Below the pieces are notes generated by a model. The model was not told the origin of the DNA, searched no databases, and saw nothing but the letters and a program-made list of their open reading frames with translations. DNA of 64,000 nt from Escherichia phage ECO340P2. Location of the stretch: sequence record OP172792; one strand, given 5' to 3'. Shown piece by piece: positions 2,268 through 52,832 of the stretch. Position numbers and translations under genes: made by a program. How positions within the stretch are numbered: position 1 is the first letter of the stretch; the number at the start of each line of letters is the position of its first letter.

Positions 2268-2579
2268 TAGGTAGGATTGTAAAGATTTGATAGTTTATCT
2301 CTTTGATGTTTTGTTGTTTGATAGATGTTAGCTATCAATATATAGCGGGGTCGTCCGGTGATTATCTTCCCCTGCTCCCAGGTGCCGCCCGTTCAATAAG
2401 TATAACAAAAAACAGGACAAAAACAAGCCCTGTTTATTTATCTTAAAACCAGTTGCCAACCGTTTCCAATAGGTCACTGACTACCAGGACAACATTAATC
2501 AGCACATATTCAACCAGGAAGGGAATAAGCGCCAGCGTTGCTACTACGATCCCCATTGTGATGATTACCTTTCTCATGG

Positions 2580-2864
2580 TTAGCGGCTTATGTAGGCTTT
2601 ACCGTTTACGGTCATCGGTATGGCTTCAAGGTCGGGATCTTCTTTAAGGTCGCGTGCAAGCTCACCGCACCGGATACCCTCGAAGCCGTGATATTCTGTC
2701 TCGCCATCCTTGAAAGTTTTAGCGGCAAGGCATAGGCGGTAATTAACGCCGATCCGGTTTACTGCGTTAATGTCGGTTAGTGTGATAGATTCCGGCAACT
2801 CTTTAGCCACTACAGGCGCGTTAATACCAACAACCAGGGCAACTACTGCGATCATCTTTTTCAT
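2580..2864 (-). CDS. small secreted protein (signal peptide)
   Basis: N-terminal MKKMIAVVALVVGINAPVVA; RBS GGAAGAGGA. Confidence 0.55.
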   Translation of the reverse strand: MKKMIAVVALVVGINAPVVAKELPESITLTDINAVNRIGVNYRLCLAAKTFKDGETEYHGFEGIRCGELARDLKEDPDLEAIPMTVNGKAYISR

Positions 2865-2896
2865 GCTGTCTATCCTCTTCCTATTGCGTTTAATGG

Positions 2897-2910
2897 GGGC
2901 GTTACCGCCC
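2897..2910 (-). promoter_or_regulatory. leader hairpin GGGCGttacCGCCC (promoter overlaps upstream gene end)
   Basis: hairpin of the repeated family immediately upstream of RBS. Confidence 0.45.
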
Positions 2911-2920
2911 TGCTTATGGT

Positions 2921-3157
2921 TTATTGATTGATGTTATGATGAAAGTTATTTTCTTCAATAGCTTTTAAAATAAAAGCCGTGATCGCTTTCGTGTCTACTT
3001 GTTCGAACGTATCAGAATAACACCAATAATAATCATCCCCTACTTTAGGCGGGTAAACTTGGACAAGGAGATCGCCACCTGGTTGATCTATAAGCTCAAC
3101 ATGCAAGCCGGATGATTCGGCGGTTTTAACGGCGTGTAATACTGTTGCTATACTCAT
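2921..3157 (-). CDS. hypothetical early protein
   Basis: ORF with AAAGGGAAAG RBS. Confidence 0.55.
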   Translation of the reverse strand: MSIATVLHAVKTAESSGLHVELIDQPGGDLLVQVYPPKVGDDYYWCYSDTFEQVDTKAITAFILKAIEENNFHHNINQ

Positions 3158-3177
3158 AATCTTTCCCTTTCTGATGT

Positions 3178-3193
3178 GGGGCGTTGCCGCCCC
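3178..3193 (-). promoter_or_regulatory. leader hairpin GGGGCGttgcCGCCCC
   Basis: hairpin of repeated family. Confidence 0.45.
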
Positions 3194-3201
3194 TTTGTTG
3201 A

Positions 3202-3501
3202 TTAGATCGCTGTTTCCAGTAGTTCGGCTAACGTTTTACCGCCTGATAGTTGGTCTAATGTTTGCTCTTCTGGCAAGAAATTAGCGGACACTAAACCTAC
3301 TTGATCCCCTTTGTGCCAATTAGCCTGGCGGGTGATGCCATCCTTCAAAGATTTTATCGCCATAGTGCAACCATCGCCAAATGATTCATTTTTATGATCC
3401 ATCACTTCATAAGCGCCCAGCTTGCTACTGTTAGGTACCATTAACATAAATACATCACCAACAATCAGTTTTTCTACGGTAATAATAGCGATAGTTTCCA
3501 T
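3202..3501 (-). CDS. hypothetical early protein
   Basis: ORF with GAGGAAAG RBS. Confidence 0.55.
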   Translation of the reverse strand: METIAIITVEKLIVGDVFMLMVPNSSKLGAYEVMDHKNESFGDGCTMAIKSLKDGITRQANWHKGDQVGLVSANFLPEEQTLDQLSGGKTLAELLETAI

Positions 3502-48464: not shown

Positions 48465-49259
48465 TTGAGCAAGTTGAACACACTTGATCAATATTACACT
48501 AACCCCGCTTATGCGGGGTTCTTATGTGATAAGATCAAAGAAATTTTTGGAGAGGAAGCTAACTACGTAGAACCATCTGCGGGAGAAGGAGCTTTCTCTT
48601 CTTGTTTTAAAAACATAACTTCTTTTGATATTGACCCTAAGTTTGAAGATTGTATTGAGGCAGATTTTTTAGCCCAATCTGTTGAGTCTGTTGGTAGTGT
48701 AACTGCTTTTGTCGGTAATCCTCCATTTGGAAAAAATGCTAGTCTTGCCATTAAATTCTTTAACCATTGTGCTGAAATGCTAGATAACGAAGGTGGTATT
48801 TGTTTTATCTTGCCTCGCACATTTCAAAAAATCTTTTTTGCACACAAACTAAATCCCCACATGCATCTTCTTTACGAAGAAGAATGTCCAAAAGGATCTT
48901 TTATTCTTCATGGAGAACCTTGGGATGTTCCTTGTGTATTCCAGATATGGATTAAACGCAACGAGAAGCGTTCTCCCGTTGTTTTAGGAGAAAATCGACT
49001 ATTTGTATTAGGCAACAGTAAAGACTACGACATAGCCGTTAGGAGAGCGGGAGCAAGTGCAGGTAAAGTGTTATCAGAAGAAGATTCTTTATCTGAAGCG
49101 TCTACCTATTTTTTAAAAGCCTTGACTTCTGATCTTAAAACGCGTATCATTGAGGCTTACCCGTTACTTAAAGCTGAAGCTAGTAAAACTGCGGGAGTAA
49201 GAAGTTTAAGTTTAAAAGAACTTCAGTGGGTTCTGGAGAACATTAGAAAGGAGGAATAG
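48465..49259 (+). CDS. DNA N6-adenine methyltransferase (orphan)
   Basis: QYYTNP, EPSAGEGAF (motif I), VGNPPFGK (motif IV); TTG start; no adjacent endonuclease. Confidence 0.7.
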   Translation: MSKLNTLDQYYTNPAYAGFLCDKIKEIFGEEANYVEPSAGEGAFSSCFKNITSFDIDPKFEDCIEADFLAQSVESVGSVTAFVGNPPFGKNASLAIKFFNHCAEMLDNEGGICFILPRTFQKIFFAHKLNPHMHLLYEEECPKGSFILHGEPWDVPCVFQIWIKRNEKRSPVVLGENRLFVLGNSKDYDIAVRRAGASAGKVLSEEDSLSEASTYFLKALTSDLKTRIIEAYPLLKAEASKTAGVRSLSLKELQWVLENIRKEE

Positions 49260-52200
49260 TGAGTAAGTTTACATGGGATATTGAAGCAAACGGATTGTTG
49301 AATAATGACACTATTGATTATTTGGCTAGTCCTTATCGTCTCAAAGACACATTTCAAATGCACTGTATTGTCTTAGAGAACCATGAAACAGGAGAAATAG
49401 TAGCTTTCCACGATGGCCCTAAATACATTTTTGATGGGCGTCCTTATGAAGAATCAGATGGTAAATACACGTATGTTCTTAAAGAGTATGTGGCGCAAGA
49501 TTACACACATTTTCAACTAAAAGATTTCCCAGACTTTATTAATCATGAAGGTTATTTTCAAGACAAGCCGGAATATCTGGTTGAAATGGCTGTGGCACAT
49601 AACGGTATCAACTACGACTGGTTGGCTACAAAACTGTTTTACGGATTGGATTACAGTGTTAAATATAATACATGGGGTAAAAGCAAGGTAAAACTTATTG
49701 ACTCCTTGATTTTGAGTAAAGTGTTGAACCCAGATCGAAAGATTGAGGGCAAATCAGGACATAGCTTGGCAGCACTTTCTCGAAAGGCAGGTGGTGATGT
49801 AAAAATAGATTTCCGTAAAGAGATTCCAGAAGAAGATCGATTTAAGACTTTTGCTGCGGATATGCTTTATTACTGTATCTATGACAACAAAGCCAATACG
49901 AGCGTATATAATTACCTTATGGAAGAATGGGGTGATTATGATAAATGGGAAGGTCCGTTTGAACTTGAACAACGTGTAGCAGACATTATTACACGCCAGG
50001 AACACCGTGGGTTTGCTTTTAACATGAAGCAAGCAGAAGAGAACCTTGCTTTTTTGGATGCCGAAATGGAGCGTCTTCGTTTACTCGTTGAGCCTATTTT
50101 GCCACCTAAGCCAGCAACAAAAGGTTATCTTAAGGCTTTTATCCCACCTAAGTTGCAAATTAAAAAGAACTTAGAACCAACTAACCATATGATCAATTTT
50201 GCTAAGAAACATGATGGTCATTTGGAAGAGAGAGATGGGGACTGGTGGTTAGTTATGTTGGGGAAAGAGTGGAAACTGCCAGTTGCAGCAGACGAACCTT
50301 TATGTGATCCTCATATCCCTGCAACATTGAATGATACAACCCATATTAAAAACTGGCTTGTAGGTTTAGGTTGGGTACCATCAGAATATAAAGATAAAGA
50401 CTTGACTCTTAAATCTGGCACCAAGATTAAAAAGAGTGAGGAAGAACTTCAGAAAGGTATTCGAGCTTACGTTGAGCAAACTCTATCTTCTAATTTTTGT
50501 CAGGATCGTTGTGATCACCTTGAGTGCACACCGGAAACCTTAGAAAGGAAAATTCAAGAGCGTATAGCAAAAGGTAAAGGTCGCGGTCTTAAAGTGTTGA
50601 CTAACCCATGTTTTACCAAAGGTCAGGAAAAAGAAATTTGTCCTAACCTGCAAGCTTTGGGTGAGAAATTTCCTTATGCTACACAGATTGTAGAATACTT
50701 AACGTATAAACATCGTAGGAACTCTATTTTAGGTGGTGGTGCTGATTGGGAAGAAGACGAAGAAGATCAAGAATACGATAAAGGTTTCTTAGCCGCAGTA
50801 AGGGCGGATGGTCGTATTCCTACCCCAGCCGCTACATGTGATGCTGCAACCTCTCGTATGAAGCATAGGTCTGTCGCTAATATTCCTCGTGTTACATCTT
50901 TGTTTGGATGGGAGATGCGTAACCTGTTTGGTGTGGAGGTTCCTAAATACTTCCAGATCGGCTACGACTTCGACTCTTTGGAAGCAAAAATTGAATCACA
51001 CTACTGTGTGCCGATGGATGCTCAAGCTTTGACTCGTAAAGGTTGGGTAGGATATCACGACCTGAAGGAAGGGGATGAGATTTTAGGGTACAATGCTGAA
51101 ACAGGTCTGAAAGAATGGACTAAAGTAAAAGGTAAGGTCTTCTATAAAAATAGTAAGACGTTTGAGATTAAAGGGAAATCACACACTTACCGTGCAACAG
51201 CAGATCACCGTTGGTATGTTAATACCCGTAGTAAAGGGAATACTTATGTGCCTAAAGTCAGAACAACTGCCGAGCTTTGCACAGGAGATAACATTATTTG
51301 TAATGCTCCATTTAATATGGAACAAGATCAGGTAAATAGTTTAACTTCTGTTCAACAAGGTAAATGGGATGTTCCGTGGGTAGAACGTGTAGTTAATATG
51401 TCTCATGCCGAGCGTGTAGCTTTCTTGGAAGGTTTCTTGATTGCAGATGGTTACTGGCACGAACATAAACAAAAACCTGTTTGGCGTTGGGCGCAGAACC
51501 CAGGTGAACTTTTTGAAGCAGCTTTAACTGCCTCGTACCTGGTGCATGGAGGCAATATCTCTGTAGCTTTCAATACAAAAGAGCAGAAAGTAAAAGTGGC
51601 AACATTGACTAACCGCTCTCACATTCCTGTTCAAAGTTTGACTATTGAAGAGTGGGGTGTAGAGGATGTTTGGTGTCCACAAACAGAACTTGGTACGTGG
51701 GTCATGCGTCAGAAAGACTGCATTACCATCACAGGAAACTGTTGGCGGTACGAGCCGGAGCCACACGAGTATTGTAACGCTCTGTTGTTAGAGAAACCTA
51801 ATGATGTTCACACAATGATGGCAAAACGTATCACTGAAACTATCGGACGTAAATTTGAACGTAGTCCTGCTAAATCTGTTAAGTATGGTATTACCTATGG
51901 TGCACAAGCCGACAAGGTTGCTAAAACAATTGGTAGCGATAAGTTTACAGGTCAATTAGTGTTTGATGCTTTCTGGGAAGCTGCATTCCCATTGGCGCGT
52001 CTTAAAGAACGTTTAAACGATTTCTGGGTTAAGACTGGTAAACAATATGTTTTGGGTATTGACGGTCGTAAGGTTCCTACTCGTTCTGCTCACGCGATTC
52101 TTAACTCTCTGTTCCAAAGTGGTGGGGTTATCTGTGCTAAACGTGCAATGGTTATTTATGACGACATGATCGAAGAAGAAGGACTAAGTGTTGACTTCTT

Positions 52201-52591
52201 TAAAGATGACTGGAAGAATAAAGACTTCGTGCAACAAATGATTGCATATCACGATGAAGCCCAGCTTGAAGTTTCTCGTAACCTTGTAGAATTTAAATGG
52301 TTTTCACCTGAATCATTAGGTTGGAAGAAAGTAGACGATCCTGAAGAACAAAAGAAAATTGATAAAGAATGCCTTGCTAAAGTTGAAGAATGGAAGCATA
52401 ATAAGGAAAAAGAGACGGGACAAATTTGGGCTAACATTCATGAATCTCCCAAAGGTGGATGGTTTACAGCCTATAGTCGGGCAGGTGAACTTGCTGCCTT
52501 AGCTGTTACTAAGGCTGGAGAATTTTACAATCTTAATGTTCAGCTTACTGCCGGATATGATGTGGGTAATTCTTGGGCGTCCTGTCACTGA
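49259..52591 (+). CDS. family A DNA polymerase with 3'-5' exonuclease domain, interrupted by putative intein
   Basis: Exo I FTWDIEANGL; motif A-like GYDFDSLEAKI; motif B-like RSPAKSVKYGITYGAQ; 245-aa insertion between them; GTG start. Confidence 0.75.
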   Translation: MSKFTWDIEANGLLNNDTIDYLASPYRLKDTFQMHCIVLENHETGEIVAFHDGPKYIFDGRPYEESDGKYTYVLKEYVAQDYTHFQLKDFPDFINHEGYFQDKPEYLVEMAVAHNGINYDWLATKLFYGLDYSVKYNTWGKSKVKLIDSLILSKVLNPDRKIEGKSGHSLAALSRKAGGDVKIDFRKEIPEEDRFKTFAADMLYYCIYDNKANTSVYNYLMEEWGDYDKWEGPFELEQRVADIITRQEHRGFAFNMKQAEENLAFLDAEMERLRLLVEPILPPKPATKGYLKAFIPPKLQIKKNLEPTNHMINFAKKHDGHLEERDGDWWLVMLGKEWKLPVAADEPLCDPHIPATLNDTTHIKNWLVGLGWVPSEYKDKDLTLKSGTKIKKSEEELQKGIRAYVEQTLSSNFCQDRCDHLECTPETLERKIQERIAKGKGRGLKVLTNPCFTKGQEKEICPNLQALGEKFPYATQIVEYLTYKHRRNSILGGGADWEEDEEDQEYDKGFLAAVRADGRIPTPAATCDAATSRMKHRSVANIPRVTSLFGWEMRNLFGVEVPKYFQIGYDFDSLEAKIESHYCVPMDAQALTRKGWVGYHDLKEGDEILGYNAETGLKEWTKVKGKVFYKNSKTFEIKGKSHTYRATADHRWYVNTRSKGNTYVPKVRTTAELCTGDNIICNAPFNMEQDQVNSLTSVQQGKWDVPWVERVVNMSHAERVAFLEGFLIADGYWHEHKQKPVWRWAQNPGELFEAALTASYLVHGGNISVAFNTKEQKVKVATLTNRSHIPVQSLTIEEWGVEDVWCPQTELGTWVMRQKDCITITGNCWRYEPEPHEYCNALLLEKPNDVHTMMAKRITETIGRKFERSPAKSVKYGITYGAQADKVAKTIGSDKFTGQLVFDAFWEAAFPLARLKERLNDFWVKTGKQYVLGIDGRKVPTRSAHAILNSLFQSGGVICAKRAMVIYDDMIEEEGLSVDFFKDDWKNKDFVQQMIAYHDEAQLEVSRNLVEFKWFSPESLGWKKVDDPEEQKKIDKECLAKVEEWKHNKEKETGQIWANIHESPKGGWFTAYSRAGELAALAVTKAGEFYNLNVQLTAGYDVGNSWASCH
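51005..51739 (+). mobile_element. putative intein (245 aa) with LAGLIDADG-like motif inside the polymerase
   Basis: begins with Cys after motif A, TADH block, LEGFLIADGYW, ends ..ITGN followed by Cys; removal restores normal A-to-B spacing. Confidence 0.5.
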
Positions 52592-52609
52592 TCTAACATA
52601 TTGTTTTAT

Positions 52610-52630
52610 AAGGGGCTTCTGCCCCTTTAT
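52610..52630 (+). terminator. intrinsic terminator GGGGCttctGCCCC + TTTAT
   Basis: GC stem, tetraloop. Confidence 0.6.
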
Positions 52631-52640
52631 AGGAGGAGAT

Positions 52641-52832
52641 ATGCATTACGATTTAGATTGTCTTGGTATGCCTTACCTACCAGATGAATTCGAAGGTGAA
52701 GAAGAACGTGAATGGGACGATGGGGATATCCGTTGTTGGTCTTGTGGTAAAGATATGTCTTATGAACAACATATGCACAATGATGGTTTCTGCATACATT
52801 GTTATAATGAAATTGATCTGGAGGAAGATTAA
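52641..52832 (+). CDS. small zinc-ribbon protein
   Basis: CWSCG...CIHC; trimmed to ATG 52641 after GGAGGAG. Confidence 0.5.
   Translation: MHYDLDCLGMPYLPDEFEGEEEREWDDGDIRCWSCGKDMSYEQHMHNDGFCIHCYNEIDLEED

Follow-up and report, generated by a model that had tools for sequence, protein, structure and literature searches.

The DNA analysed here, referred to as the window, is a stretch of 64,000 nucleotides from Escherichia phage ECO340P2 (OP172792), and its source is a Phapecoctavirus-type coliphage. A gene on its plus strand, with 97.8% nucleotide identity to the polymerase gene of phage anhysbys, encodes a DNA polymerase whose open reading frame matched Pfam DNA_pol_A (PF00476) with 43.8 bits (cut-off 34.3) and PHROG 17 'DNA polymerase' with E=7e-106. 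The palm and fingers motifs A, B and C are present, and the intein-free form aligned to T7 DNA polymerase (E=1e-22) across D475/E480 and K522/Y526, as expected of a family A enzyme. When a profile of the full-length hosts was compared with the PDB, it returned polymerases only, which confirms the hosts and does not inform on the intein. The gene is organised as follows.

49259..52591, plus strand: precursor of 1110 aa, a T7-like DNA polymerase of family A that contains the intein; starts with GTG, coordinates include the stop codon
49259..51004, plus strand: N-extein, 582 aa, ending in ...KIESHY; exonuclease part and polymerase to seven residues past motif A
50966..50983, plus strand: polymerase motif A core, D570-F-D-S-L-E575, aligned with T7 D475...E480
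51005..51739, plus strand: intein, 245 aa, Cys1 to Asn245, delimited by translation, exact absence from phAPEC8 and fold
51740..52588, plus strand: C-extein, 283 aa, starting CWRYEPEP, with motifs B and C inside, from translation and junction comparison
51860..51901, plus strand: polymerase motif B, R868-SPAK872SVKY876G-ITYG881, aligned with T7 R518...K522...Y526-G527/F528

A sequence-only reading had proposed that a family A DNA polymerase is interrupted here by an intein bearing a LAGLIDADG-type motif, and this proposal agrees with an intein-free allele, the predicted fold, the conserved catalytic blocks and GenBank annotation. The insert at 51005-51739 translates into 245 aa, beginning with CVPMD and ending with ITITGN, followed by the Cys codon at 51740-51742. 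Alignment with T7 confirmed its placement between motif A (D570...E575) and motif B (K872...Y876), and the distance from D570 to K872 falls from 302 to 57 residues once it is removed, close to the spacing of about 55 that had been anticipated. The intein-free polymerase of phAPEC8 reads ...ESHY/CWRY... without interruption, and its length of 865 aa equals that expected of the spliced product. At the DNA level, 735 bp are present in the window between the TAC and TGT that form the phAPEC8 junction, while the flanking N-extein and C-extein share 96.8% and 98.7% nucleotide identity with phAPEC8, respectively. The insertion is thus in frame in a conserved host protein and exactly missing from orthologous alleles; phage tuntematon also has an intein-free allele. 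The segment is present in about 33 of 127 related phage records and missing from the others, which speaks against a conserved domain of the homologues, and among near-identical polymerase genes the segment is an exact presence/absence polymorphism. A family-profile search of the 64,000-nt window matched only the element at 51005-51739. A group I intron or a free-standing homing-endonuclease gene was ruled out by the continuous reading frame with no internal start or stop, and a bacterial intein-like domain by the presence of a +1 nucleophile.

Within the insert, the following elements were assigned, with intein block numbering as in PMC2807308.

51005..51007, plus strand: Cys1, predicted N-terminal splice-junction nucleophile (block A), in 116/116 family members
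51197..51214, plus strand: block B, T65-A-D-H68-R-W70 (Thr B:7, His B:10, Trp B:12), conserved in 100%, 100% and 99%
51356..51634, plus strand: single LAGLIDADG half-domain, about residues 118-210, within the HINT fold, predicted as helix-strand-strand-helix-strand-strand
51425..51451, plus strand: LAGLIDADG motif, L141-E-G-F-L-I-A-D148-G149, with putative catalytic Asp148, from conservation in 116 members
51674..51676, plus strand: Cys224, block F position 4, where class 3 inteins have their branch-point cysteine; 100% conserved
51719..51742, plus strand: block G, C-I-T-I-T243-G244-N245, followed by C+1 (Thr G:5, Gly G:6, Asn G:7, Cys +1); T243 100%, G244 99%, N245 100%

All the motifs named earlier were recovered, namely T65-A-D-H68, LEGFLIADGYW (residues 141-151) and the penultimate Gly244. 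The insert therefore combines the Cys1, block B T65/H68, C-terminal N245 and C+1 of an intein with Gly244 at the penultimate (G:6) position, which is commonly His.

Conservation and predicted fold of the intein family

A word-indexed homologue search gave only 9 proteins, and an exhaustive search was needed to reveal the family, with more than 2000 cluster representatives. Because the precise presence/absence polymorphism is joined by homologues in such numbers, the insert is far beyond chance. Conservation was evaluated in 116 diverse relatives, taken as representatives from 50%-identity clusters, in which C1, T65, H68, C224, T243 and N245 were each found in 100% and W70 and G244 each in 99%. 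The +1 residue varied across the family (S 50, C 36, T 29) and is Cys in ECO340P2. About half of the scanned family hosts are family A polymerases, and the same module also occurs in portal, TerL, tape measure and DUF6321 proteins and at other polymerase sites. Of 156 intein copies of determinable size among the top matches, 119 measured 229-263 aa, and the single-motif form was the commonest among the matches examined.

A penultimate His usually assists Asn cyclisation, being common and not obligatory. The Gly in its place had been correctly observed in the sequence-only reading, and it is no defect, given its presence in 99% of the 116 relatives. Inteins without the penultimate His are able to splice; in a distant relative, the gp51 intein of mycobacteriophage Bethlehem, splicing runs to completion with a penultimate Gly and becomes slower when this residue is changed to His (PMC5050341). 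Across the sequences compared, a penultimate Gly is the normal state in this phage intein family.

An AlphaFold model of the intein, built with a 41-sequence alignment, reached a pLDDT of 94.9 and predicted a HINT fold with one LAGLIDADG half-domain, and the best structural matches to the model were all inteins. Pfam Intein_splicing scored 16.6 bits (cut-off 35.8) and LAGLIDADG_3 gave E=0.15, both below threshold; searches of NCBIfam and PHROGs with the intein gave no match, and a PDB sequence search gave sub-threshold matches only. Since only 4 of 41 family members reached E<0.001 against curated intein profiles, such profiles under-detect this intein family.

Selection and lateral movement

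Between the intein and its counterpart in Justusliebigvirus phage PaulScherrer, 53 differences are synonymous and 6 are non-synonymous (dN/dS 0.023); of these, 15 and 3, respectively, fall in the endonuclease region (dN/dS about 0.05). The KP13-16 intein is more distant, with 77% nucleotide and 90.6% amino acid identity to that of the window. The intein, including its endonuclease domain, is under purifying selection. The element is carried, with its reading frame intact, by isolated and thus viable phages including anhysbys, phi92, ESCO5 and PaulScherrer.

The inteins of the window and PaulScherrer share 92% nucleotide identity, whereas the exteins share only 72% and 79%, and this disparity between genera indicates that the intein has moved laterally in recent times. 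The inteins of UAB_1 and VEcB are near-identical to that of the window over their 3' two-thirds (dS 0.015-0.03), while the adjoining C-extein has a dS of 1.29, and mosaic breakpoints fall at the intein or within it. Judged from these comparisons as a whole, we consider that the insert is a genuine mobile intein that would be removed by protein splicing, with a probability of about 0.9.

Endonuclease half-domain

Only one LAGLIDADG motif is evident (residues 141-149), as had been noted before. Endonucleases of the PI-SceI type have two LAGLIDADG motifs and half-domains (blocks C/D and E/H), while the present intein has one of each; the acidic residue that ends the LAGLIDADG helix in that type is found here as D148. 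One motif per chain with a half-domain fold is the arrangement of the I-CreI type. The inteins TliVMA, PI-SceI, PI-PfuI and PI-PkoII contain two half-domains, some with an extra DNA-recognition region, in 360-540 aa, compared with one in 245 aa in ECO340P2. Conversely, I-CreI, I-MsoI and I-CeuI are free-standing, intron-encoded enzymes with pseudo-palindromic sites, whereas the ECO340P2 half-domain is embedded in an intein and no palindrome was seen at its target.

A two-motif relative is the 324-aa intein at motif B in nepoznato, ukendt, nieznany, AV126 and phiWec187, which belongs to the same family (32% amino acid identity) and lies in the same gene and phage subfamily. It shares the pattern CVP...TxxHxW...FC...TLTGN/C with the ECO340P2 intein and differs in its site, equivalent to T7 G527/F528 (G877/I878 in ECO340P2), and in having two LAGLIDADG motifs, the second of which aligns with the single motif of the present half-domain. 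This second site, at the boundary 51889/51890, is empty in ECO340P2, and nepoznato-type and site-a inteins were never found together in one record. At site a, where the ECO340P2 intein lies, nepoznato-type phages have a different sequence, HY/TWRYDN.

One LAGLIDADG half-domain alone cannot form a two-helix active centre. The endonuclease may be a dead remnant in an intein that still splices, left when the first LAGLIDADG half was lost and kept only for folding. The element would then persist through vertical inheritance and through ordinary recombination when phages co-infect a cell; we regard this as a serious contender with somewhat less than even odds. It is consistent with the single motif, where relatives such as the nepoznato, KIL1 and actinophage inteins carry two, and with a target site lacking palindromic symmetry, although the latter is a weak test, the best pseudo-palindrome at the empty site matching at 5 of 11 positions, a score reached at 96% of random gene positions. 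It also fits the DNA alignments, in which no divergent co-conversion tract was seen beside window-type alleles, unlike the two-motif site-b intein of nepoznato, which is flanked by a divergent tract of about 500 bp in pairwise alignment. Nor was an intein with a homodimeric or single-motif LAGLIDADG nuclease found described in the literature.

The conservation of the half-domain argues in the other direction. Position 148 is Asp in 106 of the 116 relatives and Glu in 8 (114/116 acidic, 98%), Gly149 is kept in 98%, Gln164 in 100% and Lys120 in 96%, and the size range of 229-263 aa is tight. Decaying endonucleases normally lose such conserved residues in the course of the homing cycle. The low dN/dS of the domain, an intein whose similarity between genera far exceeds that of its host gene, and breakpoints at or inside the intein likewise sit poorly with a dead remnant. 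The earlier description of the endonuclease as possibly degenerate is therefore not supported by the conserved length, acidic residue, invariant Gln and purifying selection, and this conservation suggests that the half-domain may still serve the spread of the element. For an active mobile intein, the most plausible route of spread would be a homodimer of excised inteins that cuts intein-free alleles during co-infection.

Predicted splicing pathway

By its predicted catalytic residues (Cys1, the Thr-x-x-His of block B, the terminal Asn and Cys+1), the intein is by definition of the class 1 type. The gene would be translated as a precursor of 1110 aa and about 128 kDa, from which the 245-aa HINT domain, of 28 kDa, would excise itself and join ...KIESHY to CWRYEPEP..., giving the 865-aa polymerase of about 100 kDa. 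Because the residues fit the class 1 definition, the most likely path would start with a thioester formed by Cys1 at the N-terminal junction, after which the N-extein would be moved to Cys+1 and cyclisation of Asn245 would free the intein. An insert seven residues past motif A would presumably have to be excised for polymerase activity, and the essential replicative polymerase of the phage would then have to mature by splicing.

The signature triplet of class 3 inteins is present in invariant form, as Trp B:12, Cys F:4 and Thr G:5 (W70 99%, C224 100% and T243 100% in the family), and Cys224 could accordingly initiate splicing in place of Cys1. In a class 3 or dual pathway, Cys224 would attack the N-terminal junction and pass a branched thioester to Cys+1, with Cys1 dispensable or regulatory, for example in a redox-sensitive disulfide. 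Further likenesses are the position of Cys224, 21 residues before the terminal Asn as in the class 3 MP-Be, Msm DnaB-1 and Mle DnaB inteins, a distribution centred on phages and a HINT fold that can be superposed. Atypical class 3 inteins were reportedly the subject of a report by Tori and Perler in 2011. Nevertheless, we judge such a pathway unlikely. Class 3 is defined by a missing N-terminal nucleophile, with no Cys, Ser or Thr at position 1 (PMC2807308, PMC7891396), and B:7 is not conserved in it (PMC7891396), whereas Cys1 and Thr B:7, both class 1 traits, are each 100% conserved in the present family. In class 3 inteins, block F also differs in sequence, G:6 is usually His and the +1 residue is Ser or Thr, with Cys at +1 in one known case (Bvi IcmO); in ECO340P2, G:6 is Gly and the +1 residue is Cys. 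Moreover, inteins with Cys F:4 together with a nucleophile have been reported to lie outside the class 3 clade (PMC3196547).

Profile comparisons lean the same way. The family profile matched the class-1-labelled intein of Bethlehem gp51 in both halves (25.5 + 22 bits) and the class 3 prototype Bethlehem TerL ('MP-Be DnaB') at the N-terminal end only (17 bits). The gp51 intein resembles that of ECO340P2 in Cys1, Cys F:4 and the ...T-G-N end, and differs in its length of 317 aa, a full endonuclease, Val at B:12, Ser at +1 and its host, a metallophosphoesterase-type RDF. Its endonuclease is toxic in E. coli and hence active (Kelley et al. 2016, PMC5050341).

The class-1-type reading of the ECO340P2 intein comes with an unusual combination of residues. 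Given an invariant Cys1, the invariant class 3 triplet and the invariant penultimate Gly, it is possible, though doubtful, that this large and under-annotated family has its own biology, perhaps as a class 1 lineage ancestral to class 3 or as one that splices with two cysteines, with the half-domain form acting as a homodimeric nuclease. With a class 1 nucleophile, the triplet of class 3 and a penultimate Gly that is obligatory, the family offers a natural test case for the evolution of class 3 splicing, and Cys1, Cys224 and Cys+1 at the predicted active centre would leave room for redox-conditional splicing.

Annotation of the element and its significance

The simple label 'DNA polymerase I' given to the 1110-aa product in most GenBank records might suggest that the segment is retained in the mature polymerase, as an accessory domain peculiar to the lineage or as an inactive relic. 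This is very improbable in view of near-identical polymerases exactly without the segment, intein catalytic residues that are all intact and under selection, the predicted intein fold, and the occurrence of the module at other polymerase sites and in unrelated proteins, as expected of a mobile element.

For the mobile intein favoured here, 31 of the 33 public phage records with the element say 'DNA polymerase I' or 'hypothetical protein', which leaves an annotation gap, and a profile built for the family would bring thousands of phage inteins to light. Its compact and possibly homodimeric LAGLIDADG unit, housed in an intein of 245 aa, would be of engineering interest if active. The practical value is modest. 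Inteins of this kind are known, and the element, already recognised by public records, is ordinary apart from its unusual catalytic signature and half-sized homing-endonuclease domain.

The intein call itself is not new. The same element is annotated as an intein in PaulScherrer (Bas60, MZ501100) and SD2 (PQ821640), where it occupies the same site (...KIESHY/C...GN/CWRY...) with 245 aa, 97.6% amino acid and 92% nucleotide identity, in a different genus (Justusliebigvirus) and between polymerase exteins of 72-79% nucleotide identity. The inteins of the BASEL phages were annotated by comparative genomics (PMC8594841), and this sentence in the BASEL methods was the only literature found on the present polymerase intein, two papers on rV5 concerning other inteins. 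In the PaulScherrer record, the GenBank mat_peptide is drawn one codon rightward (V...C, not C...N), which leaves the mature protein unchanged.

An intein separates motifs A and B of the phage DNA polymerase

The element under study interrupts the following gene:

49259..52591, + strand, intein-containing DNA polymerase ORF, GTG start, 1110 aa

By sequence, the product is a family A DNA polymerase: it matched Pfam DNA_pol_A with 43.8 bits (cut-off 34.3) and PHROG 17 with E=7e-106, and its intein-free form aligned with T7 DNA polymerase (E=1e-22). In this alignment D570/E575 of motif A corresponded to T7 D475/E480, and K872/Y876 of motif B to T7 K522/Y526. Translation of 51005-51739 gave 245 stop-free codons running from CVPMDAQALT to ITITGN, directly followed by a Cys codon, with T65-A-D-H68, LEGFLIADGYW (residues 141-151) and Gly244-Asn245 all present, which confirmed every detail of the insert, its position and its motifs in the sequence-only reading. 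In T7 numbering the insertion point corresponds to the junction of F487 and M488, 7 residues beyond motif A, and removal of the insert normalised the D570-K872 spacing from 302 to 57 residues, as that reading had also proposed.

The same polymerase in phage phAPEC8 has 865 aa and reads KIESHY/CWRYEPEP across the junction, the 245 residues being the sole gap in the protein alignment. At the DNA level the 735-bp insert sits exactly between TAC and TGT, with flanks 96.8% and 98.7% identical to phAPEC8. The segment was found in 33 of about 127 phage records having this polymerase and is therefore not a conserved domain of its homologues, the alternative considered at the outset. It is a presence/absence polymorphism, the pattern expected for a mobile intein. 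The full-length gene is 96.6-97.8% identical in nucleotides to the polymerase of many Escherichia Stephanstirmvirinae phages, including anhysbys, ESCO5, WPEC1 and ZCKP1, and the 24 kb around it showed about 97-98% identity to those same phages.

The orthologous gene of phage PaulScherrer (MZ501100, Bas60) carries the product name 'intein-containing DNA polymerase precursor' and mat_peptide features that mark polymerase and intein, and PQ821640 (SD2) has the same product name; the BASEL paper identified inteins through comparative annotation (PMC8594841). Because the PaulScherrer intein is 97.6% identical in amino acids to that of the window, the element is already known from public records and is not new. 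Intein annotation is missing from 31 of the 33 element-bearing records, and no discussion of this polymerase intein was found in the literature searched. The intein-free allele, the intein fold and the conserved catalytic residues described below, and the GenBank annotation support the main interpretation, an intein with a LAGLIDADG-like motif inside the DNA polymerase, which is correct. The MZ501100 mat_peptide draws the intein one codon downstream (2504-3238 of our PaulScherrer locus), as Val...Cys rather than the canonical Cys...Asn; since a Cys codon stands at both ends, this shift leaves the mature polymerase sequence of the annotation unaffected.

Upstream, the last base of a DNA N6-adenine methyltransferase ORF (48465-49259) is the first base of the polymerase GTG (49259), a one-base junction that suggests translational coupling; the arrangement is identical in phAPEC8. 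A small ORF (52536-52832, + strand) overlaps the polymerase 3' end and encodes a zinc-ribbon-like CxxC...CxxC (CWSCGK...CIHCYNE); its phAPEC8 counterparts are annotated as hypothetical. Across the whole 64-kb window ARAGORN detected no tRNA or tmRNA genes, and the family profile search detected no second intein of the same family.

Predicted fold of the intein

The intein was modelled with AlphaFold2 from 41 homologues, with a mean pLDDT of 94.9 and a pTM of 0.91. All top Foldseek matches in the PDB were inteins, led by TliVMA (E=1e-8) and followed by PI-SceI, PhoVMA, PI-PfuI and then mini-inteins.

Table. Structural matches to the intein model, with the two values recorded for each
TliVMA intein: 18.7; 228
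AceL NrdHF (class 3): 18.1; 143
PI-PkoII: 17.0; 224
PI-PfuI: 16.3; 217
PI-SceI: 14.5; 225

In the model, residues ~118-210 form a helix-strand-strand-helix-strand-strand unit, which on its own matched the LAGLIDADG proteins WhiA (8.3), I-Tsp061I (7.9), I-DmoI (6.8), I-CeuI (6.1), I-MsoI (5.8) and I-CreI (4.4). These matches support a predicted architecture of a HINT fold with a single LAGLIDADG half-domain.

A large intein family with nearly invariant splicing residues

When 1.84 billion cluster representatives were searched exhaustively, 2300 matched at E<=1e-3 and, at the stricter E<=1e-10, 835. Of 158 proteins analysed, 115 had one copy, 236-263 aa long, that aligned over its entire length. 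The copies whose length could be determined, a sample biased toward query-like forms, comprised 119 mid-size (229-263 aa), 33 full-size (290-400 aa, two LAGLIDADG motifs being recognisable in most) and 4 mini-inteins. Half of the scanned host proteins were family A polymerases. Insertions recurred at polymerase motif B, at the post-motif-A site of the window (P0012, P0019 and P0022, with EAHY/intein/TYKYDN), at the TGR.../SPN.QQIP motif and in other proteins, such as the KFDVYP/SAYANGW protein family. Further relatives occurred in TerL, portal, tape-measure and other proteins of Gordonia and Mycobacterium phages and in the polymerase of Pseudomonas phage KIL1; all of these have Cys1, TxxHxW and the block F Cys, and block G ends in TGN in 4 of 5 and in TSN in Mcklovin. 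Some metagenomic proteins (P0026, P0040, P0050, P0058, P0072) hold two inteins of the family, with merely 21 residues between two full copies in P0026 and P0040. Curated profiles miss the family: Pfam Intein_splicing gave E<0.001 in just 4 of 41 members.

Table. Conservation in mid-size family members (n=116)
C1, block A:1: 100%
T65, block B:7: 100%
H68, block B:10: 100%
W70, block B:12: 99%
C224, block F:4: 100%
T243, block G:5: 100%
G244, block G:6: 99%
N245, block G:7: 100%

The first C-extein residue (+1) was Ser in 50 members, Cys in 36 and Thr in 29. Gly244 does replace the usual penultimate His, as the sequence-only reading had noted, but as a caveat this did not hold: with Gly in 99% of the 116 members, this residue is the family norm and not a lesion, and penultimate His is frequently missing in phage inteins (Kelley et al., PMC5050341). 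The experimentally tested intein of Bethlehem gp51, extracted as C95...N411 with Cys1, TANHRV, EVWCLRV and HLTGN/S, scored 25.5 and 22 bits against the family profile in its two halves and resembles the window intein in Cys1, Cys F:4 and T-G-N; thus a tested relative with this arrangement is splicing-proficient.

With block numbering from Tori et al. (PMC2807308), W70, C224 and T243 form exactly the WCT triplet (Trp B:12, Cys F:4, Thr G:5) of class 3 inteins. C224 lies 21 residues from the terminal Asn, the spacing also seen in MP-Be (C320/N341), Msm DnaB-1 (C118/N139) and Mle DnaB (C124/N145). Both features would fit splicing that starts at Cys224, or a dual mechanism, which we nevertheless consider unlikely. 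Position B:7 is not conserved in class 3 inteins; unlike these, the window's family has both Thr B:7 and Cys1 invariant. An invariant Cys1 also contradicts the definition of class 3, in which the N-terminal nucleophile is absent (PMC2807308). The family profile matched the class 3 prototype over the N-terminal part only (17 bits), and the class 3 clade reportedly excludes inteins that have Cys F:4 together with a nucleophile (PMC3196547). On this sequence evidence we filed the window intein as class-1-type carrying the WCT triplet, a combination present in 3 of 37 WCT inteins, whose mechanism Tori et al. left open (PMC2807308). The prototype was traced to the Bethlehem TerL gp10 intein (P1, H65, W67, C320, T339-H340-N341/T); the published 'MP-Be DnaB intein' agrees residue for residue with an intein of the Bethlehem large terminase gene (61-2772 of that locus), and not of a DnaB gene.

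The remaining interest is at the family level: its members unite a class 1 nucleophile with the class 3 triplet and an obligatory penultimate Gly, most of those sampled have just one LAGLIDADG half-domain, and detection by profile databases is poor.

Proposed splicing and the state of the endonuclease

We infer the following course from the residues, the modelled fold, the tested relative and the fact that many isolates are viable. Translation would yield the 1110-aa precursor, in which the HINT domain folds and Cys1, with help of Thr65 and His68, attacks the Tyr582-Cys583 peptide bond. The N-extein would then pass to Cys+1 (polymerase residue 828), the intein (28 kDa) would be freed by cyclisation of Asn245, and an S-to-N shift would complete the 865-aa polymerase. 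More speculatively, the excised intein may dimerise and cut intein-free alleles during mixed infection.

The window intein has one LAGLIDADG motif only, aligned with the second motif of two-motif relatives. The single motif noticed earlier therefore stands, while its interpretation as degenerate was not supported. Whether the half-domain is an active homodimeric nuclease or is retained but inactive appears close to an even call. Inactivity would agree with the fact that a lone half-domain cannot form the two-helix catalytic centre (single-motif LAGLIDADG enzymes are known to act as homodimers; PMC3943268), with the empty target site, where no pseudo-palindrome beyond chance was detected, and with the literature searched, in which no single-motif intein nuclease was described. 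Against decay, the mid-size class is tightly conserved, the LAGLIDADG acidic residue is Asp/Glu in 114 of 116 members, and G149 (98%), Q164 (100%) and K120 (96%) are conserved in the same set. Furthermore, dN/dS of the endonuclease region is about 0.05 versus PaulScherrer, and the KP13-16 intein keeps 90.6% amino acid identity despite 77% nucleotide identity.

Exchange of the intein and a sister intein at motif B

In a comparison of the window (Phapecoctavirus) with PaulScherrer (Justusliebigvirus), nucleotide identity was 92.0% in the intein, peaking at 96-98% in its middle, versus 72.3% in the N-extein and 79.1% in the C-extein; dS was 0.45 in the intein and 1.5 or saturated in the exteins. 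In phages UAB_1 and VEcB, intein codons 111-245 are near-identical to the window (dS 0.015-0.03), whereas codons 1-110 gave dS of ~0.4-0.55, a contrast that places a recombination breakpoint inside the intein. With a dS of 1.29 in the adjacent C-extein, this mosaic shows that exchange was recent and that its breakpoints lie both inside the element and at its border.

A second intein site, 51889/51890 (G877/I878, motif B), is empty in the window and occupied in 12 related phage records, including nepoznato, ukendt, nieznany, AV126 and phiWec187. This motif-B intein (2501-3472 of the nepoznato locus) has 324 aa and two LAGLIDADG motifs, belongs to the same family and is 32% identical to the window intein; among the related polymerase records examined, none had both. 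In pairwise alignment, nt ~1480-1975 of the nepoznato polymerase form a ~500-bp tract 61-87% identical to phAPEC8, versus 96-100% in the rest of the gene, which looks like a typical co-conversion footprint around the motif-B intein. The tract turns the window's insertion site into HY/TWRYDN, with Thr rather than Cys at +1, and such alleles might be immune to the window's intein.

Four records labelled Campylobacter jejuni, 'Campylobacter phage' A150, A145, C3 and A110a (MG065639, MG065645, MG065656 and MG065689; 146 kb each), share 99.8% identity with E. coli Phapecoctavirus phages over the motif-B intein and have matches to the polymerase gene as well; their host label looks doubtful.
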